From Schmidtea polychroa (lineage: Eukaryota), in assembly GCA_044892525.1 (NCBI GenBank), contig CM097886.1, forward strand, positions 103,416,001 through 103,480,000: a stretch of 64,000 nucleotides of DNA. Direction: 5' to 3'. The notes beneath the pieces were generated by a model. The model saw only the letters and a program-made list of their open reading frames with translations. It was not told where the DNA came from and made no database searches. The translations under genes and the position numbers were made by a program. How positions within the stretch are numbered: the first letter of the stretch is position 1; each line of letters opens with the position of its first letter. Below, piece by piece: positions 15,596 to 61,863 of the stretch.

Positions 15596-16255
15596 AGTTT
15601 CAAATCATAATTGTGATTATACACTATTGTATTACACACTTCTATTAAAACGGATGTACATTACACTGTTATAATATAACTAACCTCATTACACACTTGA
15701 TATTACTTTAGTTATTACACACCTGCAATAACTTCATTCCCCCACTTAAGCCCTAGCCCTCACTTTTTATTGTTTAGGGCCGCGTTGTGTGTGCGCTGTG
15801 CACAGAGACCCCGCCAAGAATCTGGGCAACCACTAAGAATCACTAAACAATAAAGAGAGGGGCATAAAAGAGAAAAGTGTACAGGAGTGAGTACAAGTGT
15901 GTAAGACAAGAGTAATGGCAGTTGTGCTTTGAGATACGTTTTAATATAAGATGTGTAATACAATATGCACAACACAGTAGATAGAGAAACAGACCTGGTT
16001 GCACAGCAGGAATAGTTCATAATATTACACACCAGTGAAAAGTTATGAAATGAAATTTAATATACAAGAAGGCATAAAATATCAATTAATATTGACATTC
16101 AAATTATGGATAGTCAAGAAAGATTGTTGCCAGACACTAGTCTACCATCAACATAAGAGGGAAATTCTACGTTAAACACTACTGACAACAGTAGAGCTCC
16201 ATTATTACATCCTCCGGTTAAACAACGGATAACATATGGAACAAGAGAACCTGTT

Positions 16256-17164
16256 ATGCCAAGAGAACCACAACAGATTACTAGACAATCATATAAAAGA
16301 TTCCTAGATGATATGAAGAATTACAGAATCGAAATGGATAAATGGTATGCAGGACAAGTATACCAATCGACTTCGAAAAGAAAGTGGCCTCAACAAAAAG
16401 AGGAACATGGATATAGAATAAAGGAACCATCATTTAAGAACCCTAAATTGGATACTCCAAGAATAAAAGAACCAACAAAAATGATTACTGGTCCTTTACC
16501 AAAACCGAGACCTAGACCGGCATTGGATGATTTGACAAAAGATATGTTATATAGACAGAGCCAAGATCAGGATTTACGATTAAAGTTATTGCAATCAGCT
16601 CGACAAAGAGACATAGACAGAGGGCTAACATGGAAAGGCGATACACAAATGTCATATGATGATTGGATTGCAAAGACTGAAAGAGATCGTTTTCCTTTGA
16701 CTGATAAAGAAAGAAGAAAAATGATAGATTACGATAGAAAGGTCAAAGCAGACTTACATGCTCAAATGGAAAAGCATAAATTGGATCCTAAGTATAAACC
16801 TAGTCACCATAGTAAGTCGTTATATGATATAAAACAATTCTTCGAATTCGAAAGAGAATTATTAATGAGGAATAAAGAAAAAGGTATTCCATTAGACAAA
16901 TGGAAAGCAAAGACAGATTTAAAAGGATTAAATGAGCCAATAAAGGAATTAGAACCATATAATGAGATTTTCGACAAACATAAAAAATGGTTAGAAACGA
17001 AAACGGAACATAATAAATGGGCAGTAAAGCAATTTGAAAATTTAAAATTACGTGGAAAAGAATTCCTGACCAGTTATATGCCACTACTAAAAACAGGTTT
17101 ACGTAACCTAGGCAAAATTGGTATTATAGCTTTAATTGACTTCGGGATACAAGGAGAAATATAA
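16256..17164 (+). CDS. Orphan 302-aa charged protein, array copy 1
   Basis: Intronless ORF repeated in all 4 units. An in-frame upstream ATG at 16106 is separated from it by one TAA. Confidence 0.6.
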   Translation: MPREPQQITRQSYKRFLDDMKNYRIEMDKWYAGQVYQSTSKRKWPQQKEEHGYRIKEPSFKNPKLDTPRIKEPTKMITGPLPKPRPRPALDDLTKDMLYRQSQDQDLRLKLLQSARQRDIDRGLTWKGDTQMSYDDWIAKTERDRFPLTDKERRKMIDYDRKVKADLHAQMEKHKLDPKYKPSHHSKSLYDIKQFFEFERELLMRNKEKGIPLDKWKAKTDLKGLNEPIKELEPYNEIFDKHKKWLETKTEHNKWAVKQFENLKLRGKEFLTSYMPLLKTGLRNLGKIGIIALIDFGIQGEI

Positions 17165-17550
17165 TAGTCAGCTAAACTATTCGATTAGTATTAGTAAAGG
17201 TCATAACGCAAAGGAGTTTAGATAGATTAACTGAGTGAAAAAGTGTGTAATTATACTTATCTATTTCTATTTATAACTCAGTCTCGTTACTATTATTAAT
17301 TCAAATATACCTTACTTTAATTCACAATTGTACACGAGTATGAGAGCCATGATGCAAAAGATTTTCTACTTTTCAAACTTTATTTACTTGGTCTTTGTGA
17401 CATTGCTTGTCTTTATATAAATTTTTATCAAATATATTTTTTTAATTATTTAACAAATTACATTTCAAATAAATAAAAATAAATATTTTAAAGTAGCTAT
17501 TTGTAAGCCAAATATATATATTAACTATCTAATATTAATATTTAACTACA

Positions 17551-18609
17551 ATGACAATTACAGATTTAGTTTCAAATCATAATTCTGATTATGCAAATTT
17601 TAATAGTAAAATAATAAAAAATAATAATAAAAATGCAAGAAAACGCAAAGTAAAATACAATGTTGTCTCAGTGGATTTTAAGTACAGCAAATCGAAATAT
17701 GAAAATGTTTACGACCCTGAAAGTAAGAAACCCGTTTCACTAATAAACCACGGGGTCAACTGCTACATGAACGCTGCTATCCAAAGTATTTTCACTCCTC
17801 TACATGAAATATACCAAAGACTGGATAATATTTCAATTCCAGCCAATTGTGGAGCTGTGATCTTACTAAAAAATCTAATGAAATCATATGAAAATCGAAA
17901 AAGCTTTTCAATTCGAGAATGTATTTCTAATTATTCAAAGCTCGAGTATTTCAGCAGTGAATTGTCGTGGAATCAGCAAGAAGATGCTCATGAGTTTTTG
18001 AATTGTTTTCTCAACAAATTACATAACGAATTAGGACTGGTGTCGACATCGGTCAAATCTCCTTTCGAAAGCGCACATGATTCTCGTTTCTTTTGTGATA
18101 ACTGTGGAAAATCGAATAGTTTAGAAAGTTCCAGTGTGGTGAAAGAAAATGTTCTATTTGTGAATGTTGGCAAAAACATGAATGAAATGATTGAGAAATC
18201 AACAAGTAACAAGGTTAATGGATTTAGTTGTGAAAATTGTGGAATAAAAGGCACAGCCAGCAACACTGCCGTTTTTTCAGAATTACCCAAATTTCTAATT
18301 ATTTGTGTTAAAAGATTTACCTATGATAATTATTGTGAAAGTGTAAAGAATTCAGATCAAATTGAAATCGAGGAATTTATTTCTGTCTCACTTAAAGAAA
18401 ACGACACAGTCAAACATGTAAAATATGAATTAATTTCAATAGTAAATCATCATGGAAGTGCGTTTGGTGGGCATTATAATTGTTGTTTAAAACATGAAAA
18501 CGTTTGGTACACAGCAGATGACGAATCCATTACAGAGTTCAGCTTCGATCAGGTCGTAAGCAGTTCCAGATCTTCATGTTATATACAGGTTTATGTAAAA
18601 AGAGAATAA
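17551..18609 (+). CDS. Ubiquitin-specific peptidase (USP, peptidase C19), intronless, copy 1
   Basis: Cys box LINHGVNCYMNAAIQ, QQEDAHEFL, CxxC pairs (CDNC, CENC), LPKFLIICVKRF, His box IVNHHGSAFGGHY and WYTADD. The catalytic C/H/D residues are intact. Confidence 0.93.
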   Translation: MTITDLVSNHNSDYANFNSKIIKNNNKNARKRKVKYNVVSVDFKYSKSKYENVYDPESKKPVSLINHGVNCYMNAAIQSIFTPLHEIYQRLDNISIPANCGAVILLKNLMKSYENRKSFSIRECISNYSKLEYFSSELSWNQQEDAHEFLNCFLNKLHNELGLVSTSVKSPFESAHDSRFFCDNCGKSNSLESSSVVKENVLFVNVGKNMNEMIEKSTSNKVNGFSCENCGIKGTASNTAVFSELPKFLIICVKRFTYDNYCESVKNSDQIEIEEFISVSLKENDTVKHVKYELISIVNHHGSAFGGHYNCCLKHENVWYTADDESITEFSFDQVVSSSRSSCYIQVYVKRE

Positions 18610-19159
18610 ATTCGAATGTATTGTTTATAAAACATTTTTAGTATCTATCATTTAAGTATAAATATACAAAGTAAAATATCTGTTTTTTCTATTATCATAA
18701 TAAAATTATTAATACTAATTTGTCTAAAATCTTATTTTTGATCGATTTTTTGAGATTAACTTTTCTTTGAAAGTAGTTGCTTCTATAATTAATTATGCGA
18801 AATTTTTGATTTTATTTTTTGATTTTATTTTATTTTATCAAATTTTAAAAGTTAATGAAAAATGTGCTTTAAAATATAGTAAAATTTCAAGTTTTCGATT
18901 TGAATATTATTAATGTCAGTTATTAATGTCAGTAAAAATAGCTCAAACTCAAGACACGAGTAGATAAATACGAATGCACTAGCTCACTATAGAATTAGTC
19001 TTCAATTAGCGCTTCAATTCGGCTAGAAGATGATGGTAATGTGATGTCCCATGGTCTATGTTTTAAATTCTGTCAATCACATCATGTTAAAGTAAATATT
19101 TTTCAAAATTTTCTCTAACATTTTGACACAAAATCCGGCTGCACATTAGCTCAAATGTA

Positions 19160-19357
19160 TCTAGGTCATGTAAGACGTAACCAACAGTTACTGCAGATAC
19201 AATGCTCGATACCTCAAAGATTCTATTCTGTCCCAAATTCGACTACCTCTATTACAAGTCTAGGTCATGTAAGACGTAACCAACAGTTACTGCAGATACA
19301 ATGCTCGATACCTCAAAGATTCTATTCTGTCCCAAATTCGACTACCTCTATTACAAG
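19160..19357 (+). repeat. 99-bp tandem repeat, 2 copies (unit 1)
   Basis: Perfect repeat TCTAGGTCATG...CTATTACAAG, period 99. Confidence 0.95.
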
Positions 19358-19571
19358 TCTGTTGTTCCAGGCATCAGTAAAATTATGAAAGCCCGCAACT
19401 ACGGTGCTAAAGAGAAATTGTGGTGCTGGACATGGGGCATGAACGAAAAGGGCGTATCAGATTATACACCTATGAGATGGGATTCATCGACAATATCGAA
19501 TCATATCCCTGGATTGAAGAATGCAACCCCATTCCGACAATATTCCTGAAAATTTCAGAAATCGTTAGATG

Positions 19572-19621
<50 letters not shown>

Positions 19622-19627
<6 letters not shown>

Positions 19628-20081
19628 GAATTATTTTTGCTGTGCAACCAGGTCTGTTTCTCTATCTACTGTGTTGTACACTATTGTATTACACACTTCT
19701 ATTAAAACGGATGTACATTACACTGTTATAATATAACTAACCTCATTACACACTTGATATTACTTTAGTTATTACACACCTGCAATAACTTCATTCCCCC
19801 ACTTAAGCCCTAGCCCTCACTTTTTATTGTTTAGGGCCGCGTTGTGTGTGCGCTGTGCACAGAGACCCCGCCAAGAATCTGGGCAACCACTAAGAATCAC
19901 TAAACAATAAAGAGAGGGGGATAAAAGAGAAAAGTGTACAGGAGTGAGTACAAGTGTGTAAGACAAGAGTAATGGCAGTTGTGCTTTGAGATACGTTTTA
20001 ATATAAGATGTGTAATACAATATGCACAACACAGTAGATAGAGAAACAGACCTGGTTGCACAGCAGGAATAGTTCATAATA
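19622..20081. mobile_element. ~460-bp fold-back / MITE-like element at the start of each unit (also 23733-24192, 27799-28258; left arm truncated in unit 1)
   Basis: Perfect 39-bp inverted repeat (19639-19677 vs 20026-20064) inside ~90-bp imperfect arms. Confidence 0.6.
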
Positions 20082-20312
20082 TTACACACCAGTGAAAAGT
20101 TATGAAATGAAATTTAATATACAAGAAGGCATAAAATATCAATTAATATTGACATTCAAATTATGGATAGTCAAGAAAGATTGTTGCCAGACACTAGTCT
20201 ACCATCAACATAAGAGGGAAATTCTACGTTAAACACTACTGACAACAGTAGAGCTCCATTATTACATCCTCCGGTTAAACAACGGATAACATATGGAACA
20301 AGAGAACCTGTT

Positions 20313-21221
20313 ATGCCAAGAGAACCACAACAGATTACTAGACAATCATATAAAAGATTCCTAGATGATATGAAGAATTACAGAATCGAAATGGATAAAT
20401 GGTATGCAGGACAAGTATACCAATCGACTTCGAAAAGAAAGTGGCCTCAACAAAAAGAGGAACATGGATATAGAATAAAGGAACCATCATTTAAGAACCC
20501 TAAATTGGATACTCCAAGAATAAAAGAACCAACAAAAATGATTACTGGTCCTTTACCAAAACCGAGACCTAGACCGGCATTGGATGATTTGACAAAAGAT
20601 ATGTTATATAGACAGAGCCAAGATCAGGATTTACGATTAAAGTTATTGCAATCAGCTCGACAAAGAGACATAGACAGAGGGCTAACATGGAAAGGCGATA
20701 CACAAATGTCATATGATGATTGGATTGCAAAGACTGAAAGAGATCGTTTTCCTTTGACTGATAAAGAAAGAAGAAAAATGATAGATTACGATAGAAAGGT
20801 CAAAGCAGACTTACATGCTCAAATGGAAAAGCATAAATTGGATCCTAAGTATAAACCTAGTCACCATAGTAAGTCGTTATATGATATAAAACAATTCTTC
20901 GAATTCGAAAGAGAATTATTAATGAGGAATAAAGAAAAAGGTATTCCATTAGACAAATGGAAAGCAAAGACAGATTTAAAAGGATTAAATGAGCCAATAA
21001 AGGAATTAGAACCATATAATGAGGTTTTCGACAAACATAAAAAATGGTTAGAAACGAAAACGGAACATAATAAATGGGCAGTAAAGCAATTTGAAAATTT
21101 AAAATTACGTGGAAAAGAATTCCTGACCAGTTATATGCCACTACTAAAAACAGGTTTACGTAACCTAGGCAAAATTGGTATTATAGCTTTAATTGACTTC
21201 GGGATACAAGGAGAAATATAA
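20313..21221 (+). CDS. Orphan 302-aa charged protein, array copy 2
   Basis: Differs from copy 1 by I->V (YNEI/YNEV). Confidence 0.6.
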   Translation: MPREPQQITRQSYKRFLDDMKNYRIEMDKWYAGQVYQSTSKRKWPQQKEEHGYRIKEPSFKNPKLDTPRIKEPTKMITGPLPKPRPRPALDDLTKDMLYRQSQDQDLRLKLLQSARQRDIDRGLTWKGDTQMSYDDWIAKTERDRFPLTDKERRKMIDYDRKVKADLHAQMEKHKLDPKYKPSHHSKSLYDIKQFFEFERELLMRNKEKGIPLDKWKAKTDLKGLNEPIKELEPYNEVFDKHKKWLETKTEHNKWAVKQFENLKLRGKEFLTSYMPLLKTGLRNLGKIGIIALIDFGIQGEI

Positions 21222-21607
21222 TAGTCAGCTAAACTATTCGATTAGTATTAGTAAAGGTCATAACGCAAAGGAGTTTAGATAGATTAACTGAGTGAAAAAG
21301 TGTGTAATTATACTTATCTATTTCTATTTATAACTCAGTCTCGTTACTATTATTAATTCAAATATACCTTACTTTAATTCACAATTGTACACGAGTATGA
21401 GAGCCATGATGCAAAAGATTTTCTACTTTTCAAACTTTATTTACTTGGTCTTTGTGACATTGCTTGTCTTTATATAAATTTTTATCAAATATATTTTTTT
21501 AATTATTTAACAAATTACATTTCAAATAAATAAAAATAAATATTTTAAAGTAGCTATTTGTAAGCCAAATATATATATTAACTATCTAATATTAATATTT
21601 AACTACA

Positions 21608-22666
21608 ATGACAATTACAGATTTAGTTTCAAATCATAATTCTGATTATGCAAATTTTAATAGTAAAATAATAAAAAATAATAATAAAAATGCAAGAAAA
21701 CGCAAAGTAAAATACAATGTTGTCTCAGTGGATTTTAAGTACAGCAAATCGAAATATGAAAATGTTTACGACCCTGAAAGTAAGAAACCCGTTTCACTAA
21801 TAAACCACGGGGTCAACTGCTACATGAACGCTGCTATCCAAAGTATTTTCACTCCTCTACATGAAATATACCAAAGACTGGATAATATTTCAATTCCAGC
21901 CAATTGTGGAGCTGTGATCTTACTAAAAAATCTAATGAAATCATATGAAAATCGAAAAAGCTTTTCAATTCGAGAATGTATTTCTAATTATTCAAAGCTC
22001 GAGTATTTCAGCAGTGAATTGTCGTGGAATCAGCAAGAAGATGCTCATGAGTTTTTGAATTGTTTTCTCAACAAATTACATAACGAATTAGGACTGGTGT
22101 CGACATCGGTCAAATCTCCTTTCGAAAGCGCACATGATTCTCGTTTCTTTTGTGATAACTGTGGAAAATCGAATAGTTTAGAAAGTTCCAGTGTGGTGAA
22201 AGAAAATGTTCTATTTGTGAATGTTGGCAAAAACATGAATGAAATGATTGAGAAATCAACAAGTAACAAGGTTAATGGATTTAGTTGTGAAAATTGTGGA
22301 ATAAAAGGCACAGCCAGCAACACTGCCGTTTTTTCAGAATTACCCAAATTTCTAATTATTTGTGTTAAAAGATTTACCTATGATAATTATTGTGAAAGTG
22401 TAAAGAATTCAGATCAAATTGAAATCGAGGAATTTATTTCTGTCTCACTTAAAGAAAACGACACAGTCAAACATATAAAATATGAATTAATTTCAATAGT
22501 AAATCATCATGGAAGTGCGTTTGGTGGGCATTATAATTGTTGTTTAAAACATGAAAACGTTTGGTACACAGCAGATGACGAATCCATTACAGAGTTCAGC
22601 TTCGATCAGGTCGTAAGCAGTTCCAGATCTTCATGTTATATACAGGTTTATGTAAAAAGAGAATAA
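21608..22666 (+). CDS. USP deubiquitinase, copy 2
   Basis: Same motifs as copy 1; one V->I change. Confidence 0.93.
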   Translation: MTITDLVSNHNSDYANFNSKIIKNNNKNARKRKVKYNVVSVDFKYSKSKYENVYDPESKKPVSLINHGVNCYMNAAIQSIFTPLHEIYQRLDNISIPANCGAVILLKNLMKSYENRKSFSIRECISNYSKLEYFSSELSWNQQEDAHEFLNCFLNKLHNELGLVSTSVKSPFESAHDSRFFCDNCGKSNSLESSSVVKENVLFVNVGKNMNEMIEKSTSNKVNGFSCENCGIKGTASNTAVFSELPKFLIICVKRFTYDNYCESVKNSDQIEIEEFISVSLKENDTVKHIKYELISIVNHHGSAFGGHYNCCLKHENVWYTADDESITEFSFDQVVSSSRSSCYIQVYVKRE

Positions 22667-23171
22667 ATTCGAATGTATTGTTTATAAAACATTTTTAGTA
22701 TCTATCATTTAAGTATAAATATACAAAGTAAAATATCTGTTTTTTCTATTATCATAATAAAATTATTAATACTAATTTGTCTAAAATCTTATTTTTGATC
22801 GATTTTTTGAGATTAACTTTTCTTTGAAAGTAGTTGCTTCTATAATTAATTATGCGAAATTTTTGATTTTATTTTTTGATTTTATTTTATTTTATCAAAT
22901 TTTAAAAGTTAATGAAAAATGTGCTTTAAAATATAGTGAAATTTCAAGTTTTCGATTTGAATATTATTAATGTCAGTTATTAATGTCAGTAAAAATAGCT
23001 CAAACTCAAGACACGAGTAGATAAATACGAATGCACTAGCTCACTATAGAATTAGTCTTCAATTAGCGCTTCAATTCGGCTAGAAGATGATGATAATGTT
23101 AAAGTAAATATTTTTCAAAATTTTCTCTAACATTTTGACACAAAATCCGGCTGCACACTAGCTCAAATGTA

Positions 23172-23468
23172 TCTAGGTCATGTAAGACGTAACCAACAGT
23201 TACTGCAGATACAATGCTCGATACCTCAAAGATTCTATTCTGTCCCAAATTCGACTACCTCTATTACAAGTCTAGGTCATGTAAGACGTAACCAACAGTT
23301 ACTGCAGATACAATGCTCGATACCTCAAAGATTCTATTCTGTCCCAAATTCGACTACCTCTATTACAAGTCTAGGTCATGTAAGACGTAACCAACAGTTA
23401 CTGCAGATACAATGCTCGATACCTCAAAGATTCTATTCTGTCCCAAATTCGACTACCTCTATTACAAG
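23172..23468 (+). repeat. 99-bp tandem repeat, 3 copies (unit 2)
   Basis: Same unit as 19160-19357 with one extra copy. Confidence 0.95.
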
Positions 23469-23682
23469 TCTGTTGTTCCAGGCATCAGTAAAATTATGAA
23501 AGCCCGCAACTACGGTGCTAAAGAGAAATTGTGGTGCTGGACATGGGGCATGAACGAAAAGGGCGTATCAGATTATACACCTATGAGATGGGATTCATCG
23601 ACAATATCGAATCATATCCCTGGATTGAAGAATGCAACCCCATTCCGACAATATTCCTGAAAATTTCAGAAATCGTTAGATG

Positions 23683-23738
<56 letters not shown>

Positions 23739-24423
23739 GAATTATTTTTGCTGTGCAACCAGGTCTGTTTCTCTATCTACTGTGTTGTACACTATTGTAT
23801 TACACACTTCTATTAAAACGGATGTACATTACACTGTTATAATATAACTAACCTCATTACACACTTGATATTACTTTAGTTATTACACACCTGCAATAAC
23901 TTCATTCCCCCACTTAAGCCCTAGCCCTCACTTTTTATTGTTTAGGGCCGCGTTGTGTGTGCGCTGTGCACAGAGACCCCGCCAAGAATCTGGGCAACCA
24001 CTAAGAATCACTAAACAATAAAGAGAGGGGGATAAAAGAGAAAAGTGTACAGGAGTGAGTACAAGTGTGTAAGACAAGAGTAATGGCAGTTGTGCTTTGA
24101 GATACGTTTTAATATAAGATGTGTAATACAATATGCACAACACAGTAGATAGAGAAACAGACCTGGTTGCACAGCAGGAATAGTTCATAATATTACACAC
24201 CAGTGAAAAGTTATGAAATGAAATTTAATATACAAGAAGGCATAAAATATCAATTAATATTGACATTCAAATTATGGATAGTCAAGAAAGATTGTTGCCA
24301 GACACTAGTCTACCATCAACATAAGAGGGAAATTCTACGTTAAACACTACTGACAACAGTAGAGCTCCATTATTACATCCTCCGGTTAAACAACGGATAA
24401 CATATGGAACAAGAGAACCTGTT

Positions 24424-25332
24424 ATGCCAAGAGAACCACAACAGATTACTAGACAATCATATAAAAGATTCCTAGATGATATGAAGAATTACAGAATCGA
24501 AATGGATAAATGATATGCAGGACAAGTATACCAATCGACTTCGAAAAGAAAGTGGCCTCAACAAAAAGAGGAACATGGATATAGAATAAAGGAACCATCA
24601 TTTAAGAACCCTAAATTGGATACTCCAAGAATAAAAGAACCAACAAAAATGATTACTGGTCCTTTACCAAAACCGAGACCTAGACCGGCATTGGATGATT
24701 TGACAAAAGATATGTTATATAGACAGAGCCAAGATCAGGATTTACGATTAAAGTTATTGCAATCAGCTCGACAAAGAGACATAGACAGAGGGCTAACATG
24801 GAAAGGCGATACACAAATGTCATATGATGATTGGATTGCAAAGACTGAAAGAGATCGTTTTCCTTTGACTGATAAAGAAAGAAGAAAAATGATAGATTAC
24901 GATAGAAAGGTCAAAGCAGACTTACATGCTCAAATGGAAAAGCATAAATTGGATCCTAAGTATAAACCTAGTCACCATAGTAAGTCGTTATATGATATAA
25001 AACAATTCTTCGAATTCGAAAGAGAATTATTAATGAGGAATAAAGAAAAAGGTATTCCATTAGACAAATGGAAAGCAAAGACAGATTTAAAAGGATTAAA
25101 TGAGCCAATAAAGGAATTAGAACCATATAATGAGGTTTTCGACAAACATAAAAAATGGTTAGAAACGAAAACGGAACATAATAAATGGGCAGTAAAGCAA
25201 TTTGAAAATTTAAAATTACGTGGAAAAGAATTCCTGACCAGTTATATGCCACTACTAAAAACAGGTTTACGTAACCTAGGCAAAATTGGTATTATAGCTT
25301 TAATTGACTTCGGGATACAAGGAGAAATATAA
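24424..25332 (+). pseudogene. Orphan 302-aa ORF, copy 3, with a nonsense mutation
   Basis: TGG->TGA at 24511-24513. Confidence 0.7.
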
Positions 25333-25718
25333 TAGTCAGCTAAACTATTCGATTAGTATTAGTAAAGGTCATAACGCAAAGGAGTTTAGATAGATTAACT
25401 GAGTGAAAAAGTGTGTAATTATACTTATCTATTTCTATTTATAACTCAGTCTCGTTACTATTATTAATTCAAATATACCTTACTTTAATTCACAATTGTA
25501 CACGAGTATGAGAGCCATGATGCAAAAGATTTTCTACTTTTCAAACTTTATTTACTTGGTCTTTGTGACATTGCTTGTCTTTATATAAATTTTTATCAAA
25601 TATATTTTTTTAATTATTTAACAAATTACATTTCAAATAAATAAAAATAAATATTTTAAAGTAGCTATTTGTAAGCCAAATATATATATTAACTATCTAA
25701 TATTAATATTTAACTACA

Positions 25719-35977: not shown

Positions 35978-36854
35978 AACATTTGGTATTGATGATTTAT
36001 GGCAAATGGATTTGATGGAGATGATACTTTATTCGAAAATTAACAATGGGAATAAATATATTTTAACATGTATTAATGTATACAGCAGGTTTGCACGAGC
36101 AATACCAGTCAAGGCAAAATCTGCAGAAGAAATGTCCAAGGCAATTAATATTTTATTTAAAGATGGACATCCTAATAACTTGCAAACAGATTTAGGTATT
36201 ATTATTATTATTATTATTATTTTAGGTAAAGAATTCTATAATAGCAAAGTTAAGCAAATTCTCGATAAACTGAAAATAAATCACTACTCGGTACATTCTC
36301 AATACAAAGCTGCCCATGTTGAAAGATTTAATCGAACATTGAGAGATAGATTAAAGAAATTGTTCGTGCATCAAGGTAATAAAAAATGGGTAAATGTATT
36401 ACCGAAAATAATAACAAGTTATAATCATTCATCACATCGAGGACTGAATGGATTGAGACCGGTTGATATTACATCAAAAACATCATTGACTTCTAAAAAA
36501 TCTGTAAAAATTGCAAAACCTAAATATAAAGTTGGTGACCATGTTAGAATTAGTAAAATTAGTGCATCACCATTTATTAAAAATTTTGATACAAATTGGA
36601 GTGATGAAGTCTTTGTAATTTCAAAAATAAATACTAAACAGAATCCTGTAATGTATGTCATCAAAGATAATGATAATAATATTGTACAGGGGAAATTTTA
36701 TGAGCAGGAATTACAAGTCATTCCTCCCCCAAAAGTATTTAGAATTCAAAAAATATTGAAAACTAAAAAAGTCGGCAAGGATAAACAATACTATGTCAAA
36801 TGGCATGGTTATCAAAACCCGTCATGGATATCAGCAAAAGATCTAGTAAAGTGA
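35808..36854 (+). CDS. Maverick retroviral-like (RVE, DDE) integrase with a C-terminal chromo-like domain; probable 30-nt intron at 36196-36225
   Basis: WQMDLMEM (D), LQTDL^GKEF (D), KAAHVERFNRTLR (E), YKVGDHVRI, GKFYEQEL and YYVKWHGY. The likely start is MEKIWTNP at 35808. Confidence 0.93.
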   Translation: MEKIWTNPEDKAGFGGVEKLKKRVPNSKKETQEWLSDQLAYSLNKPMRKRFPTRAYKTFGIDDLWQMDLMEMILYSKINNGNKYILTCINVYSRFARAIPVKAKSAEEMSKAINILFKDGHPNNLQTDLGIIIIIIIILGKEFYNSKVKQILDKLKINHYSVHSQYKAAHVERFNRTLRDRLKKLFVHQGNKKWVNVLPKIITSYNHSSHRGLNGLRPVDITSKTSLTSKKSVKIAKPKYKVGDHVRISKISASPFIKNFDTNWSDEVFVISKINTKQNPVMYVIKDNDNNIVQGKFYEQELQVIPPPKVFRIQKILKTKKVGKDKQYYVKWHGYQNPSWISAKDLVK

Positions 36855-37873: not shown

Positions 37874-38228
37874 TATTATTAGTATGTATAGTGGTAGCCA
37901 ATCTGGCGGTGAATTACCATATTTTATTGGTAAACAGTACGGATCGGGATGGTTGAGAACAATTGGTAGATTTGCATTGCCTATTCTTAAACGTATTGGT
38001 AGTTTTGGTATGAAAACTGCAAAAGATGTTATTATGAATGAACAGAAAATATTACCATCTCTAAAAACAAATGCTTTAGCTGAATTAGGTAAAGTTTTAC
38101 CGGGGGTTGCAGGTATGTTTCAAAAAGAAAAATCTCCAGCTCCAGCTCCTGTTCCAAAACGTAAAAGACACGGAATATCACGTATAAACAAACGAATGAA
38201 AGGACATGGAACTATATTTGCAAAATGA
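37860..38228 (+). CDS. Conserved Maverick protein with QSGG/QYGSG motifs and an amphipathic helix (candidate membrane-lytic / core protein)
   Basis: SQSGGELPYFIGKQYGSGWLRTIGRFALPILKRIG; lies between penton and hexon. Confidence 0.75.
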   Translation: MANSDIISMYSGSQSGGELPYFIGKQYGSGWLRTIGRFALPILKRIGSFGMKTAKDVIMNEQKILPSLKTNALAELGKVLPGVAGMFQKEKSPAPAPVPKRKRHGISRINKRMKGHGTIFAK

Positions 38229-39448
38229 TTTGTGGTAAATCTGAATTATGTATATTTGATAGACCATCGCCTCAAGCGGTAATTGAATTTGGGGCGTTTG
38301 AGGAAGTTTTTCCTATGAATTCAATTACCGATAGTAGAAATGATATAGAGTTTTATATTAATGGTTCGCAAACTGAATATTTAGATTTGAACGATACTTT
38401 ATTGACTGTTCAGATCAAGGTTGTAGATAAAGATAGAAAAGTTTTGGATGCCAATGCAGATGTAATACCGAACAATTTCCTGTTTCATACTCTGTTTAAA
38501 GATGCAGTGTTGGGATTTAATAATATAAAGATTGAGGGTGGAAATAATACATTCATTCACAAAGCTTTAATAGAAACTATTTTAAATTACAATTCCGATA
38601 CTAAAAATACATGTCTTACTCCAATGGGTTATGCAGCAGCAGATGATGAAAGAAAAAAGTGGGTTAAAGGCTCAAAGGTTTTCACCATGTGCTCATCATT
38701 ACAACTCGATTTTATGGATCAACCGAAATATTTACTACCGGGAGTTAATGTACATATTAGACTGAAAAGGTCTGATTCTGCATTATCTCTTACTAGTGCA
38801 ATTGGTGCACCAATATGTCAATTAGTTGATGCAAAATTATTGGTGAGAAGAGTTCGAGTAGACCCGTCAGTATTAGCTGGTCATCAATTAGGTCTTAATT
38901 CAAAACATGCAATTTATCCATTAAAAACAAAGGAAATTGTACAATTCGCTATTGCTAAAGGTGCTTCATCATTCTATAAAGAACAAATATTTGGTGATAG
39001 AAGAATGCCTAATTTTATTCTGATAACATTTCAAAGTGAAACACAATATAATGGATCATATACTGCGTCCAGTTCAATTTTCAAAAACTTTGGTGTTACA
39101 TCATTGACTTTGTCGAAAAATACTGATTATAGAGAAACATATATTCAAGATTTCGAGAATGACAATTACTGTGCGACATATATGCAGAGTATTGTTAGAA
39201 ATCTGGGTTATTTAGATAAAAATTTGAATTGTGGAATAACTCTAGAAGAATTTAAAACCAAATACCCATTTTTTACATTTGTTTTAGCCCCCGATTTTGA
39301 TTTAAATCAGAGTCAATTACCCCAAAATGGAAATTTACGACTGGATATAAAGTTTGCAAAAGCAATTACTGAACCAGTCCATGTAATAATCTATGGAGTA
39401 TTTGAAAATGAAGTTCAAATTACTGCAAATAGAACAGTGTTGGTATAA
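38225..39448 (+). CDS. Major capsid protein (hexon, double jelly roll)
   Basis: 407 aa. SELCIFD...IEFYINGS..EYLDLNDTLL, QPKYLLPGVNVHIRLKRS, and GNLRLDIKFA are characteristic of the Maverick MCP. Confidence 0.9.
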   Translation: MICGKSELCIFDRPSPQAVIEFGAFEEVFPMNSITDSRNDIEFYINGSQTEYLDLNDTLLTVQIKVVDKDRKVLDANADVIPNNFLFHTLFKDAVLGFNNIKIEGGNNTFIHKALIETILNYNSDTKNTCLTPMGYAAADDERKKWVKGSKVFTMCSSLQLDFMDQPKYLLPGVNVHIRLKRSDSALSLTSAIGAPICQLVDAKLLVRRVRVDPSVLAGHQLGLNSKHAIYPLKTKEIVQFAIAKGASSFYKEQIFGDRRMPNFILITFQSETQYNGSYTASSSIFKNFGVTSLTLSKNTDYRETYIQDFENDNYCATYMQSIVRNLGYLDKNLNCGITLEEFKTKYPFFTFVLAPDFDLNQSQLPQNGNLRLDIKFAKAITEPVHVIIYGVFENEVQITANRTVLV

Positions 39449-39475: not shown

Positions 39476-39859
39476 ATGGAGTAAGTTTTTTGATACTATT
39501 TAATTTATTAAAGTAGTTCTGTTCAGGTTAATCGAATTGGAAAACAGATATTGGGAAATGAATTTGTAGGAGTTTTTCCTCTCGATAAAATTCCATATTT
39601 GAGAAATAATCAAGCCATAATCGTCAATACTCAATCGTCTCATCTTGGTGGAGAACATTGGATAGCTATATACGTGAAACCTAGTAATATATTCGTATTC
39701 GATCCTATGGGTTTTTATTACCCGGCTTTATTGATATCAAAACTGCAAACAATGGGGAAACCTATTATGTATAATAAAACTATGTTTCAAAATCCATTGA
39801 CCCAAACATGTGGTCAACATTGTTTAGCTTGGTTGTTGTATAAAAAATTTGATGTTTAA
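39476..39859 (+). CDS. Adenain-like cysteine maturation protease, 115 aa; exons 39476-39480, 39517-39859
   Basis: ATGGA|gtaagt...aagtag|TTCT gives MDSVQVNRIGKQILGNEFVGVFP. Catalytic GEHW, FDPMG and QTCGQHC are present. Confidence 0.9.
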
Positions 39860-40167: not shown

Positions 40168-40258
40168 GATTGGTTAAGAGAGTAAAATATTTAGTTTATA
40201 TATATGTGTGTCTAAATTCTGATTGGCTGGGACAGGAAATTTTCATTTTCTTTATAAA
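40168..40258 (+). promoter_or_regulatory. Pol II promoter candidate: two reverse CCAAT boxes and a TATA box
   Basis: GATTGG at 40168 and 40221, TATAAA at 40253, about 85 nt upstream of the ATG at 40341. Confidence 0.45.
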
Positions 40259-40340
40259 CATTCACAAATTCCAAATTTGTCACTTTTAAAAAATATTTAT
40301 TTACAAATTTGCAAACAAAACAATTATCAACAATTTCAAA

Positions 40341-40893
40341 ATGAATAATCAAAATAATATTTTAAAAGCAATGTTGGCTGGAGAAAACGGTAAATTTTTT
40401 TTTTCTTTTATTTATTATTATTTTATTCACATTTAGCTAATTTATGGTACGAAGTTACCGAAACAGAAAATAATATGGACGATGCCCCAATTATTATTAG
40501 TGACGATGATGATGGTAAATTAAATTATTTATTTATTAAATTATTAAAATTTAGATGAAATTAATCTTATGGAAGATAATGAAATTATTATTATAACCGA
40601 TGATGAAGAAATCATTATTAGTGATGACAGTGGTAAGTTTTATATTATTTATTAAATATATTTAAAAAGGAACTTCAGATAATGAAACAAATGTAGTTAA
40701 AAATGAAGGAGTAATTAATAATATCGTCGATGATGCCCCCACAGATATTGGAAATGTCGTCAATGAATCTGATGCATCCACATTTATTGCAAATGCAGTT
40801 GATGATTCTGATGCCCCCACTGATATTGGGGATGCCCCTATGCGGGATGAATTAGAAGATGATTCTGATTCCGATATGGAATGGAAATGTTAG
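40341..40893 (+). CDS. Spliced acidic protein with three SUMO-interacting-motif-like sites, ~139 aa; exons 40341-40389, 40437-40514, 40555-40632, 40679-40893
   Basis: Not in the ORF track. Three phase-1 GT-AG introns (47, 40, 46 nt) give an open frame: ...DAPIIISDDDD|DEINL...EIIIITDDEEIIISDDS|DNET...DMEWKC*. Confidence 0.75.
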
Positions 40894-41319
40894 CATTTTT
40901 TAATTTATTTTTTATAATATTTAACAAATTTTTACTAAAACACTTCGTTAAATGTATTAATTTAAATGATTAATTATTCAAAAACTTTATTTGATAAGTA
41001 ATTAAATCTTTATAAATCATAAATTGATAATAATATTTTAACAAATTAATACATGTNNNNNNNNNNNNNNNNNNNNNNNNNNNNNNNNNNNNNNNNNNNN
41101 NNNNNNNNNNNNNNNNNNNNNNNNNNNNNNNNNNNNNNNNNNNNNNNNNNNNNNNNNNNNNNNNNNNNNNNNNNNNNNNNNNNNNNNNNNNNNNNNNNNN
41201 NNNNNNNNNNNNNNNNNNNNNNNNNNNNNNNNNNNNNNNNNNNNNNNNNNNNNNNNNNNNNNNNNNNNNNNNNNNNNNNNNNNNNNNNNNNNNNNNNNNN
41301 NNNNNNNNNNNNNNNNNNN

Positions 41320-41354
41320 TAGCTTGTAGTGAGCATGCATCTACATCTCTTCTC

Positions 41355-41440
<86 letters not shown>

Positions 41441-41545
41441 GCCCCAAATAAATGTAGCTTGCAGTGAGCATGCATCTACATCTCTTCTCATATAATAATA
41501 ATAATTATCCCAATAAAAGTAGTTTGCAGTGAGCATGCATCTACN
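41320..41545 (+). repeat. Hairpin-containing minisatellite interspersed with (AAT)n; recurs upstream of every polB copy
   Basis: The core GTGAGCATGCATCTAC is visible 8 times (41.3-41.5, 46.6-46.8, 54.3, 61.8-62.0 kb). The rest is masked. Confidence 0.85.
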
Positions 41546-42080
41546 NNNNNNNNNNNNNNNNNNNNNNNNNNNNNNNNNNNNNNNNNNNNNNNNNNNNNNN
41601 NNNNNNNNNNNNNNNNNNNNNNNNNNNNNNNNNNNNNNNNNNNNNNNNNNNNNNNNNNNNNNNNNNNNNNNNNNATATCTTTCACATAGTTAGCATTCAG
41701 CATGCGACTACCAACCTATGATATTAATAATATTAATAATAATTCATATGATTCATTTTAGTTTACAATTACCAATTTCAGATTATTTTACAATTATTAA
41801 TATTTATTTCATTTTTACGGTTTTTTTTTATTAGAAATGAAATAAATATCAATAACTGTTATAGATTTATAACAATAAATATATAGATATTTTATGTAAA
41901 TTATATTAGTCTAATAAAATGTATTAATTAATGTTATTTTTGAACAAATACAATCGAAATGATATATATATTCAAAAATTTTAGAATGTAATTTAATTAT
42001 TTTTTAAAAATTTATTAGGCAAACTATATCAACGATATTGTCAATCCTCAATTGGACATAGCTCTGCATGCCATAAAGTA

Positions 42081-42269
42081 ATGAAGCTTTACTATGGTCA
42101 TAGATTCTATGGCACCAACTTTTTTATTTGCCCCAAATGCGAAACTGCCCAAGATTTAAAATACATAGATTTTTATAAGGGGCATTACACCCACTTAAAT
42201 CAATTTGTATTGAATAAAAAGACCCTTTTTAATATAATTTATGCGAAAACTAATAAGAATAATAATACA

Positions 42270-42349
<80 letters not shown>

Positions 42350-45300
42350 TAATAACAGAAATAATAGAAATAATAATAATACCAATAACAGAAATAATAA
42401 TACAAATAACCGAAATAATACAAATAATAATGATTCAAATAATGGAAATAGTACATATAATAATAATATTACAAATAATGGAAATATTAATAATACAAAT
42501 AATAGAAATATAGATAATACAAATAATAATACAAATAATAATACAAATAATAATAATAATAATACAAATAATAATACAAATAATCGAAATAATAAAAAAT
42601 CTAAAAGACCTGCTGTAAATACTGTTCCGTGTATCCCTACTAAAATTATAAAATTATCAACCATCGTGATAAGTGATGATGAATCTGAATTATTAAATAC
42701 CCAAATAGGGGGTTCGATAAACAATATAGAAAATATTCAAATAGATATAAATGATGAACCTGAAATAGAGATAGATTTAAAGGGTTCCCGTAAAAATATT
42801 CGATTTGATTTAGAACATAAAAACTTAATTCAAATCTCCCTTACGGATAAAATTATAAATAAAATTAATGTGGAAATTGAAAAGATGGGATCTGTAAAAG
42901 TCCAGTTTACAGTTCTTATTCAATTTGAAAAAGATGGAGAAATTAAAGATAATTTCTTTTCAAATAGTGCGAGTGTTTTTTCCGACAATTTTCTTATCGA
43001 TGGTGTGAGTCGATTAAATGAGAAAATTGAAAAATTTACTTATTTAGGTAGCGGATGGAGGGTTGTAAAGATTAAGGAACTTGATTTTATTTTGACCACA
43101 TTTTACCCTATAAGTCGATTAGCTGGCCATAGTTTTATACCTACACCAGCGGCAATATATAAAAAGAAAGCAATTGTAAATGTAAGAAACAATGATAATG
43201 CTTGTTTTATATATAGTGTTTTATCACTATTAAAGCGTGATATAATTTTAAATCACAGGGAGCGTGTTTCCAATTATACTAATTACTTAGACGAACTAAA
43301 TTATGATCCCATTACTGATTGCCCAATGAGGTTATGCAACATCCCGAAATTTGAAAGAAATAACATAGATTTAAAATTGGCAATCAATGTTTTTGAATAT
43401 AAACCCACAATAACAGGGAATAAAATAAATAATGATATAGATTATGTACCTCATCATCCACACCTAAATATAATTCATAGATCTAAGGTTACCGAAGGGA
43501 ATCCTATTAATCTTTTACTCCTACAAGACGGTGATAATTATCATTACACCGCAATTTTTAATTTAAACCGATTAATGAATGGTCATTCAACCATCGAATG
43601 TAATACTAGAATTAGAGTTAGATGGTGCCCTCATTGTTTAAATGGTTTTTATCGGGTCAAAACTTTTAAGGTACATGTTGCATTGTGCGCTAAAAATCAA
43701 ATAGGAACCACCCTTTACACGCTCCCTAAAAATAAAAATTTAACGTTTAAAGATTATTCAAAGATGATTACCCCACCGTTCGTAATATACGCGGACTTTG
43801 AGGCTATTTTACCTGGGGATATAAATCATCACCAAATACACAAGCCAATAACAGCAGGTCTATTATTAATTAACAATTACACTAACACAACATCATATTT
43901 TAATTTTATAGGCTTGGAATGTGTTTTTGAATTTTTAAAGAAGGTGGAGGAAATTGCTGTCACAATTGTCCTCCCGTATTATGAAATTCATGGTAGAAAA
44001 TTCATCAATACTCTGTCTTTCAATGAGGAACGGGAGTTCAACAACTGTAGGACTTGTTATCTCTGTAAACATTTTATAAAGGATAAGGTTAAGGACCATG
44101 ATCATTTCACAGGTAAGTATCTTGGTGCTGCCTGTAGAAATTGCAATGTTTCTAGGAGAATAAACAAACAGGGGTATGACTTACATCACATTTTAAAGTA
44201 TGGTTTGAATGATTTTCCATCTTGGAAATTAAATATCATTCCGACCACCACTGAAAAATTTATATCCTTGATTGTAAATATTAACAAATTGACTGTTCGT
44301 TTTATCGACAGTATGCAATTTGTTAACTCATCGTTAGCAAAGGCAGTTAAAACTCTTTCAGATTTACCTTTAACTTCGTCTGTTTTTGATGGTAGTATTG
44401 TGAGAGCAAAGGGCATATTTCCTTACGACTTTGCAACATCACTCGAAATTCTTGAATCTACTCATGAATTACCACCGATTTGGAGTTCTGTATCTAATGA
44501 AGAATATGCTATCGCCCAAGAAATCTGGGTTCAGCAAAATTGCGAAACAATGTTAGACTATATGTTAACGTACCTTAAATTGGACGTATTCCTCTTGGCA
44601 GATTATTTTCAGCAATTCCGTGCCAAAGCAATTGCTTATAACGGCCTTGAACCTCTAAACTTCTATGGAATTCCAGGTATGTCATGGGCGTCAGCACTCA
44701 TGACATTACAGGAACCTATAGAAGTTCTACAGGATATGGAAATGTATAATTTCTACGAAGGTGGAATACGGGGCGGGTTAACATTTGTTAACAAACATTA
44801 TGTAGCAAGTTCTGAAGATACAGAACTTTTGTATATAGATATAAATAATTTATATGGTTGGGCTCTTAGCCAAAATCTTCCGTATGGTGACTTTGTTTGG
44901 GTGTATGAAAATCTGAATGATGTGTTGAGTGAATGCGTGAATGCCGATATTGAAAACCTTCCATATGGTTATACTATGGAAGTAGACATCAATATCCCTA
45001 ATCGTGTGCATGAATATTTGAATGATTTTCCGCTTGCTCCTGAAAAAATGTGTCCACCTAATTCAAAGGTTGAGAAGCTTATGCTCACGCATTGGCCTAA
45101 GAAGAACCATGTTCTTCATTGGCGGCTTCTCAAGCTGTATATAGAATTAGGTGCGGAAGTTGAGCATGTACATAGAGCAATTAAATTTAAACAATCAACA
45201 ATTTTCAAAACATATATAGATCGAAATACTAATTTACGTTCAAAATCAACATGTGAACTGTATAGAGATCTATATAAATTATTCAATAATAGTCTCTATG

Positions 45301-46253
45301 GTAAATCATTAGAGAATTTGAAAAAACGTATGAATTTGAGGCTATGCAATTCATCAGCAAAGATGATTGTATACGCCTCCAAACCAACTTTCAAAAAATC
45401 AATTAAAATAGCGGATGATCTGATTGCGGTTCATCTTAATAAAGATATTATATGTTTAGACAGGCCTAGCTACATAGGCCAATCAGTGCTAGACCTGTCT
45501 AAACTACGCATGTATCAACTGCAATATAATGAATTGGCAAAATATAGATCCGAATTCTTATGTGATATAAATATCGTTGCCGGCGATACTGATTCGTTTT
45601 TTCTTGAGGTTAAGCACTGTAAGCTAGACACTCTTTTGCCGGCAATGATAAGAGATAATCTTCTAGATACCTCTAATTATGATCCCGCACACCCATTATA
45701 CTCGAGAAACCTTGATTCTGTGATAGGAAAATTTAAAGATGAAAGCAAAGGTCTCGGGTATAAGGAATGGGTTTTCTTAAGACCTAAGTGCTATAGTTTA
45801 TTAGGTGTCAAAGATACTATGAGGGCTAAAGAGGTGAAGTTAATGGGGACAGAGATTGAGCACCAGTCATATTTAGACTGCTACAATAACAACGTAGAAA
45901 TTGCAGTGCCGCAAACTAGGATAGGGACGCGGAACCACCAACTATATACCATCAAAAATAGTAAAATCGCATTGACAAATAACGATGACAAGCGATTATG
46001 GGTGGGGAAAAATAATAGTATCGCATTTGGGCATTATTTTGGGGTTGATGCTGTAGATAATGATCAAGTATTGGATGAAGTTGGACCGCTCTCTGTAGGT
46101 TTCAGTCCAGATTTCGATGAAAGTGATCAAATATTAGAGGAAGTTGGACCGCTTTGTGGAGGTTTCAGCCCAGATTTCGATGATAGTATCGATATAGATG
46201 TTGATATAGACGATATTATATTAACTGATGATGATGATGACGACTATTATTAA
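42081..46253 (+). CDS. polB: Protein-primed family B DNA polymerase (pPolB), copy 1, uninterrupted (1390 aa)
   Basis: Exo I YADFE, CxxC...DHDH...CxxC (endonuclease VII-like) insert, YLKLDV, YIDINNLYGWAL, KLFNNSLYGK, AGDTDS and RPKCY. Also a poly-Asn tract and an acidic tail. Confidence 0.95.
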
Positions 46254-54062: not shown

Positions 54063-54134
54063 TTGCGAGTTGTTGAGCGTGAGCAGTACCCTTGTGAGCA
54101 TTACCCATAGGGGGATAGAATATTTTGTCGGATA
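54063..54134 (-). repeat. Inner tip of the Maverick right TIR
   Basis: Reverse complement of 31460-31531 with 3 mismatches. Confidence 0.85.
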
Positions 54135-54347
54135 GATTAGGANNNNNNNNNNNNNNNNNNNNNNNNNNNNNNNNNNNNNNNNNNNNNNNNNNNNNNNNNN
54201 NNNNNNNNNNNNNNNNNNNNNNNNNNNNNNNNNNNNNNNNNNNNNNNNNNNNNNNNNNNNNNNNNNNNNNNNNNNNNNNNNNNNNNNNNNNNNNNNNNNN
54301 NNNNNNNNNNNNNNNCTTGTAGTGAGCATGCATCTACATCTCTTCTC

Positions 54348-61575: not shown

Positions 61576-61647
61576 TTGCGAGTTGTTGAGCGTGAGCAGT
61601 ACCCTTGTGAGCATTACCCATAGGGGGATAGAATATTTTGTCGGATA
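61576..61647 (-). repeat. Inner tip of the Maverick right TIR (second occurrence)
   Basis: Same sequence as 54063-54134. Confidence 0.85.
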
Positions 61648-61863
61648 GATTAGGANNNNNNNNNNNNNNNNNNNNNNNNNNNNNNNNNNNNNNNNNNNNN
61701 NNNNNNNNNNNNNNNNNNNNNNNNNNNNNNNNNNNNNNNNNNNNNNNNNNNNNNNNNNNNNNNNNNNNNNNNNNNNNNNNNNNNNNNNNNNNNNNNNNNN
61801 NNNNNNNNNNNNNNNNNNNNNNNNNNNNNNNCTTGTAGTGAGCATGCATCTACATCTCTTCTC

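Follow-up and report, generated by a model that had tools for sequence, protein, structure and literature searches.

The question raised by this locus is what four small exons at 40341-40893 of the window encode. The window is a 64,000-nt stretch of the Schmidtea polychroa genome (CM097886.1 103416001-103480000), and the exons lie inside a Maverick/Polinton element, between its protease gene and the gene for its protein-primed DNA polymerase (pPolB). A sequence-only reading had taken them for a stand-alone gene, built by exon duplication, whose product would bind SUMO through several SIM-like motifs and act as a free SUMO-chain sponge.

The element and the predicted pPolB gene

In the AT-rich, 781-Mb host genome, scoring 40 of 1484 candidates for the 1-kb region around the exons gave at least 59 matches; for the protease, 150 of 5016 candidates were scored, which gave at least 150 near-identical copies. 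Pfam recognized ORFs for a packaging ATPase (Pox_A32, E=4e-7), an adenain-type cysteine protease (Peptidase_C5, E=2e-6), an integrase (rve, E=8e-6, below the curated cut-off) and a TBP-like protein (34031-34468, minus strand, E=2e-14). Polymerase motifs, homologues with PF03175 and fold matches identified pPolB as a protein-primed PolB; the Pfam search itself gave no PF03175 match for the window's own pPolB protein. The size and position of an ORF at 38225-39448, which matched neither Pfam nor phage records, suit a candidate double jelly-roll major capsid protein. A candidate terminal inverted repeat was detected as an 80-nt inverted match of 31451-31531 to 54063-54142 and 61576-61655 (92.5%), the right end being partly N and duplicated.

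Intact vertebrate Mavericks are reported to be intronless (PMC8097293). The core ORFs here are not: there are introns in pPolB, and candidate introns in the protease and the integrase. Because intronlessness is a reported trait rather than a core criterion, we class the element as a variant Maverick. The protease probably begins with a 5-nt coding exon (ATG GA) followed by a 36-nt GT..AG intron (39476-39516), kept in most copies, and a candidate 30-nt in-frame GT..AG intron of ATT repeats lies inside the integrase catalytic-Asp motif (36196-36225).

Four tandem units of ~4.06 kb (15612-30994) adjoin the left end of the element; every unit holds an ORF for a ubiquitin-specific protease (Pfam UCH, E=6e-38) beside an unknown ORF of 335 aa. 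A small element ORF (31993-32304, plus strand) without a Pfam match is one that, by eye, we take to resemble Bcl-2 BH1; in a distant family, L200, an ORF like it lies ahead of the leader. Three further repeats of the pPolB part occur within 41675-64000 (46.9k, 54.4k and 62.1k), starting inside intron 4 and without the leader. A ~2-kb insert carrying a transposase-like ORF lies in two of them, and further repeats follow past the window end. The window pPolB lacks nine exonuclease II codons (44100-44200 region) relative to a sister copy, and this copy is therefore probably impaired. A genome-wide Rad60-SLD search for host SUMO gave at least 150 ubiquitin-like repeat matches (of 828 candidates), many in long ORFs at dispersed loci, which suggests ubiquitin-bearing mobile elements; neither this search nor two degenerate patterns built from SUMO motifs gave anything usable as a host SUMO sequence. 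The genome also holds three intronless TFIIH p62 paralogues.

The predicted gene is laid out as follows.

40253..40262, plus strand: putative TATA-like promoter motif (TATAAACATT), which sister subfamilies have kept ahead of the leader
40341..40389, plus strand: exon 1, coding part, 49 nt, ATG at 40341, ends in phase 1
40390..40436, plus strand: intron 1, 47 nt, GT..AG, phase 1, predicted
40437..40514, plus strand: exon 2, 78 nt, phase 1-1, with W-Y-E-V-T-E (40445-40462) and SIM-like PIIISDDDD (40487-40513)
40515..40554, plus strand: intron 2, 40 nt, GT..AG, phase 1, predicted
40555..40632, plus strand: exon 3, 78 nt, phase 1-1, with SIM-like IIIITDDEE (40584-40610) and IIISDDS (40611-40631) and an internal 27-nt repeat
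40633..40678, plus strand: intron 3, 46 nt, GT..AG, phase 1, skipped in one X1 contig
40679..40888, plus strand: exon 4, 210 nt, phase 1-1, acidic, last base T, with an in-frame 78-nt tandem unit of variable copy number
40889..42018, plus strand: intron 4, 1130 nt, GTTAG..AG, predicted, partly N, containing TAG 40891-40893 and a short repeated palindrome
42019..46253, plus strand: exon 5, with a Cys/His domain (42019-42248), then an Asn-rich stretch, TP-like domain, vOTU (predicted catalytic Cys 43203 and His 43542), exonuclease, polymerase and acidic tail; SIM-like TIVISDDESE at 42660-42689 and, in the acidic tail, IILTDDDDDD at 46215-46244

The spliced product would comprise 4650 nt. Exons 1-4 carry 40 D/E against 4 K/R in 135 whole codons, and GC content is 0.24-0.38 in exons versus 0.05-0.15 in introns. 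Among 19 aligned copies, multiples of three made up 9 of 16 exon indel events as against 2 of 13 intron events. One of the nine in-frame exon indels is an insertion that itself contains an intron; the frame-shifting exon events (7/16) occur in decayed copies. An extra 78-nt unit in exon 4 was present in 10 of the 19. With the TATA-like motif, a presumed promoter, as the anchor for aligning sister subfamilies, four or five leader exons of varying length were found, the exon 1 homologue measuring 46-52 nt; these lengths are those checked by eye, automatic parsing having chosen wrong acceptors and failed on decayed copies. Exon 4 had no Pfam match. Intron 4 measures 904-1130 nt in five subfamilies, and the comparison of these five revealed no common coding exon in it. 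A palindromic repeat (41320-41545, core TGCAGTGAGCATGCA) alternating with AAT runs is common to all five, the rest of the intron having diverged; it is possibly a cis element.

The equal length and phase of exons 2 and 3 were borne out, as were the GT..AG introns around them. The exon duplication read from this equality stood in part. In register, the two exons share 32 of 78 positions (null 30.3 +/- 4.3, P=0.39), and for want of this colinear homology we did not accept equal length as showing duplication. In three sister subfamilies exon 2 measures 60-63 nt. Shifted out of register, the last ~50 nt of exon 2 and the first ~50 nt of exon 3 are alike (P=0.013), and so are introns 2 and 3 (P=0.007), both values being uncorrected and from low-complexity DNA. 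Together with the 27-nt repeat in exon 3, this pattern would be best explained by small tandem duplications rather than a clean exon copy.

From the exon 4 donor to the pPolB acceptor

In the window, the open spliced frame ends at TAG 40891-40893, as expected of a stand-alone gene that leaves pPolB to start separately at ATG 42081. This stop falls within the donor of intron 4, and the end of a four-exon gene is therefore not confirmed. We compared 49 homologous exon 4 ends, several of which come from one locus in some cases. The donor was T|GTTAG at 34, giving an immediate stop if intron 4 were retained, and T|GTAAG at 10, where there is no stop and the frame would read on into low-complexity sequence; 4 sites were damaged and 1 was read out of frame. 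The stop is thus not conserved, whereas the donor is.

At the other end of intron 4, an acceptor (last base 42018) precedes the first pPolB ATG by 62 nt. AG|G[CT] was found in 30 of 33 matches; two others read AG|AC, which would give Tyr, and one was spurious. In four further Maverick families of the genome this codon also bears the acceptor, with a T|GT[AT]AG upstream, and a phase 1 acceptor was common to all families sampled. Over the 20 codons from acceptor to ATG, pairwise comparison of five subfamilies gave pS 0.57-1.00 and pN 0.15-0.30 in 9 of 10 pairs (the pair L042-L043, nearly identical sequences, gave pS 0.00 and pN 0.06). On the intron side of the acceptor, just 12-19 of 38 positions were identical. 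Judged from these comparisons, purifying selection acts between the acceptor AG and the first ATG, and conservation begins at the AG, which is not expected if pPolB starts at 42081.

The predicted joint points the same way. The codon split between exons 4 and 5 is TGC or TGT and would encode Cys; the final base of exons 1-3 is G, from which Gly would result. A Cys occupies this position, 4-6 residues before the next ligand position, in 12 of 12 uninterrupted relatives, picked because their N-termini extend upstream. Other relatives (P0002, P0003, P0124, P0125 and P0148) begin at an internal Met, the pattern expected of intron-blind gene calls. Three conserved Cys/His residues of the domain lie upstream of ATG 42081, and L192 has a stop just before the acceptor; both observations argue against a separate start.

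Splicing was inspected in 4 of 13 sequencing runs (X1-X4), aligned as assembled contigs to 40438-40895 only; none of the runs is recorded as RNA, and X1 is probably an RNA run, its kind being guessed. One of 11 X1 contigs skipped the 46 nt of intron 3, GT..AG, and a DNA form without this intron was absent from the 41 loci checked. The contig did not use an alternative intron 3 acceptor at 40669. X2, X3 and X4 contigs contained no splice joints over this region. Splicing of intron 2 was seen in none of the X1-X4 contigs; one X1 contig enters the intron by 7 nt and one X2 contig crosses it entirely. In one further X1 contig 94 nt spanning exon 2 and intron 2 appear to be deleted; it had no match among the 41 loci.

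Use of donor 40889 was seen in two X1 contigs that leave the window sequence at 40888|40889. Their continuation matches the genome exactly once, immediately after an AG, at the start of a host exon with Pfam CSTF_C (E=6e-18), the last one of the CstF-64 gene; an upstream CSTF2 hinge exon (E=3e-22) has the same orientation. Copy L018 lies between the two exons, ~5 kb upstream of the CSTF_C exon. Its variants match the spliced contig, and it has lost the sequence corresponding to 41770-43376, the pPolB acceptor included; its donor 1 is shifted, donor 2 weakened, and donors 3 and 4 are intact. As the contigs pass from 40888 to the CstF-64 exon and L018 lacks the normal acceptor, 40889 is a working donor that in such a copy joins the next host exon. 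This X1 transcript, from a decayed copy in a host intron, may be driven by the host promoter. The decayed copy at L063/L065 (G000:C3:128777.6k-128790.9k) lies in sense orientation in an intron of the host CstF-64 gene and is spliced to the final exon of that gene; translation is predicted to stop where the two meet.

Because the stop lies in a used donor, the acceptor is conserved in phase 1 and the joint would create a conserved Cys, the four small exons are very likely the coding start of pPolB, contributing an acidic 138-aa leader to a protein of 1549 aa, and not a separate gene. We are highly confident that in intact copies donor 40889 would be joined to acceptor 42018, giving a protein composed of leader, Cys/His domain, Asn-rich linker, SIM-like motif, terminal protein, vOTU and polymerase. 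The stand-alone gene is very probably wrong. The joint of exons 4 and 5 (40888|42019) was not seen in the X1-X4 contigs over 40438-40895, as that gene would predict; set against the evidence above, a four-exon SUMO-chain sponge with a separate pPolB nevertheless appears highly improbable.

An intermediate arrangement would give both products: intron 4 would sometimes be retained, or its transcript cleaved, yielding full pPolB and a free 139-residue poly-SIM protein as a SUMO decoy. The unspliced GTTAG donor does encode Cys-stop at most sites, the intron is long in all five subfamilies, and some X1 contigs continue unspliced into it. However, the 10 sites without a stop read on into low-complexity sequence, GTTAG also serves an ordinary internal intron of the relative L080, the first AATAAA is ~557 nt downstream in 88% AT sequence, and one distant family has a last intron of ~200 nt and no stop. 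We consider such dual output improbable.

SIM-like and W-x-x-V motifs of the leader

The SIM consensus is a V/I-x-V/I-V/I hydrophobic core flanked by Ser/Thr and acidic residues (PMC7915335). The three leader motifs and two pPolB motifs named by the sequence-only reading are all present, and their SIM-like look was confirmed: the leader holds hydrophobic cores with acidic or Ser/Thr flanks in tandem, and the motifs are kept through synonymous codon changes between subfamilies. In all six frames of the window, [VIL]3-[ST]-[DE]2 had 10 matches, 3 in the leader exons and 7 in pPolB copies, and none elsewhere. Residue shuffles of the leader gave 0.012 matches against the 3 observed, for a pattern picked after the motifs had been seen; a looser SIM pattern gave 2 observed against 0.137 (P=0.0065). 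With all window matches in leader or pPolB and far lower values in shuffles, the pattern stands above background. With exons 1-4 very probably part of pPolB, leader and pPolB motifs would share one polypeptide; a free SUMO-chain sponge is not supported.

One to three SIM-like motifs were found in 8 of 9 related subfamily representatives (the window, L035, L037, L042, L043, L047, L195 and L198), multiplied inside single exons in L037 and L047. Subfamily L046 has none, and neither do the leaders of two distant families (L170 and L200), although these are laid out in the same way. Ahead of the TP-like domain, L190, L192 and L194 carry a motif of this kind, as do 6 of 13 outside homologues under a loose pattern, 7 being without.

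Daxx and PIAS are SIM-bearing proteins and RNF4 is a tandem-SIM protein. The leader shares with them a V/I-x-V/I-V/I core followed by Ser/Thr and acidic residues, in tandem within an acidic region; it differs in having no RING or other effector domain, and its motifs are predicted and absent in some families. PML is a vertebrate protein, and PML bodies, which had been invoked for this locus, are unlikely to be relevant here.

Runs of Ile and Asp arise cheaply in the (ATT)n-rich DNA of this region, and the leader could be a nearly neutral, biased extension kept only for the start codon and first Cys, its motifs the product of ATT/GAT slippage. Exon number and length do vary freely, a distant family manages with a basic, motif-free leader, and in outside relatives pPolB begins a few residues ahead of the Cys. 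We nevertheless regard neutrality as very unlikely: motif residues are kept despite synonymous codon changes, pN is well below pS in two leader blocks, and this single predicted protein accounts for all 10 motif matches of the window.

The best-kept leader motif is not a SIM. W-[YF]-x-[VIF]-[TS]-E had 58 matches over the loci screened, two with an in-motif stop, and occurs in 9 of 9 related subfamily representatives, the SIM-less L046 included (pS 0.82, pN 0.21). The same spliced leader might serve mainly to contact another host factor through a W-x-x-V acidic string, of the TFIIH p62 PH type or the Atg8 type (to which we presume a likeness), or as a generic acidic activation or DNA-mimic tail, with the SIM-like motifs secondary. 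XPC Trp133/Val136 and UVSSA Phe408/Val411 have the same spacing in acidic strings (PMC5727438), and the element also encodes a TBP-like protein. On the other hand, the residues before the Trp are not strongly acidic, unlike those of described acidic strings, the motif is missing from the leaders of the two distant families, and the repeated gain of Ile-rich acidic motifs would be left unexplained. A score of 0.01, from modelling the exon-2 peptide together with the p62 PH domain of the host and with alignments unused, is not counted as evidence either way. A main role of this kind strikes us as fairly unlikely, and we return to SUMO docking as the preferred reading.

Domains, relatives and meaning of the leader

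Exon 5 contains the vOTU catalytic Cys and His in the sequences NDNAC and YHY, its activity being predicted. A structure model of 42675-44200 (pLDDT 75) had its best fold matches in adintovirus and related pPolBs (E 3e-23). The TP-like part of this model gave weak Y-family little-finger matches (probability up to 0.99, but E above 0.001), and folding the Cys/His domain from its sequence alone yielded a poor model (pLDDT 54). No usable match came from the ESM Atlas, and a first homologue search with residues 1-480 found one match, of low complexity. Among the N-termini inspected (33 of 120 and 29 of 150), no other protein carried the full spliced leader.

In metagenome relatives, pPolB starts at the Cys/His domain, and 5 of 9 inspected (L080-L084) have short AT-rich intron candidates in the pPolB 5' coding region. 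One of them, L080, carries a tandem pair of near-identical exons. One distant family of the genome shows a three-mini-exon layout of the leader. At dozens of loci, a distant Maverick family (L193 and L170-L181; e.g. G000:C1:102696300-102701100) has its pPolB 5' ends paired head to head, 3.5-6 kb apart; in L193 the arms form a 1950-bp inverted repeat with 100% identity.

The closest known counterpart of the gene is Maverick/Polinton adintovirus-type pPolB with its TP-vOTU-EXO-PALM organization (10.1101/2024.03.18.585575); the two share vOTU Cys/His and polymerase motifs and the accompanying integrase, ATPase and protease. It differs in being spliced, with four mini-exons supplying the start, the acidic leader and the first Cys of the Cys/His domain. 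Dinoflagellate maverick-polinton-like elements also contain introns, namely introners that are mostly secondary insertions (PMC11957031); here, in contrast, diverged families share inherited intron positions, and a conserved codon is split by the last intron.

In adenovirus, the spliced E2B mRNAs for polymerase and pre-terminal protein take their first codons from an upstream exon. The likeness is that the first codons of a protein-primed replication protein come from such an exon; the difference is that few residues are added there, whereas here the full leader comes from four host-sized mini-exons with variable motifs, on a fused TP-polymerase.

We propose that exons 1-4 are spliced onto exon 5 to give pPolB with an acidic, predictedly disordered N-terminal leader. 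In the polinton model, vOTU cuts between TP and vOTU (10.1101/2024.03.18.585575). As vOTU would cut behind the terminal protein, the piece bound to the genome ends would keep the leader and four of the five SIM-like motifs. The motifs could then tether the free linear genome to SUMO-rich nuclear sites, or shield it locally from SUMO-dependent silencing. Given the gene structure, we hold SUMO binding with either consequence to be about evenly balanced; docking of the polymerase or its terminal protein on SUMO-modified host proteins is our leading explanation, tentatively and at slightly below an even chance. Such docking would be a lineage-specific accessory, not a core need. A bolder version, which we consider unlikely, is that in this animal Maverick clade host-type mini-exons form a modular, fast-evolving pPolB N-terminus, here with up to three SUMO-binding motifs and W-x-x-V, so that, after vOTU cleavage, each free genome end bears on its terminal protein a poly-SIM arm countering small-RNA silencing that depends on SUMO, as an anti-silencer encoded by the transposon and fused to its replication primer. 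Polintons are direct nuclear-PIWI targets in a planarian (PMC8532177), and fly piRNA silencing runs through SUMO-SIM contacts (10.1101/533091).

A search of literature listings, reaching few subscription papers or Repbase entries, showed no description of a spliced leader or SIMs on polinton pPolB. Maverick core genes are usually annotated as intronless ORFs, and in this clade pPolB would therefore be called from the wrong start, losing the host-facing module and part of the Cys/His domain. Without SUMO binding by the motifs, the finding would come down to this correction of gene structure. The structure offers a handle on how endogenous polintons meet host chromatin defence.
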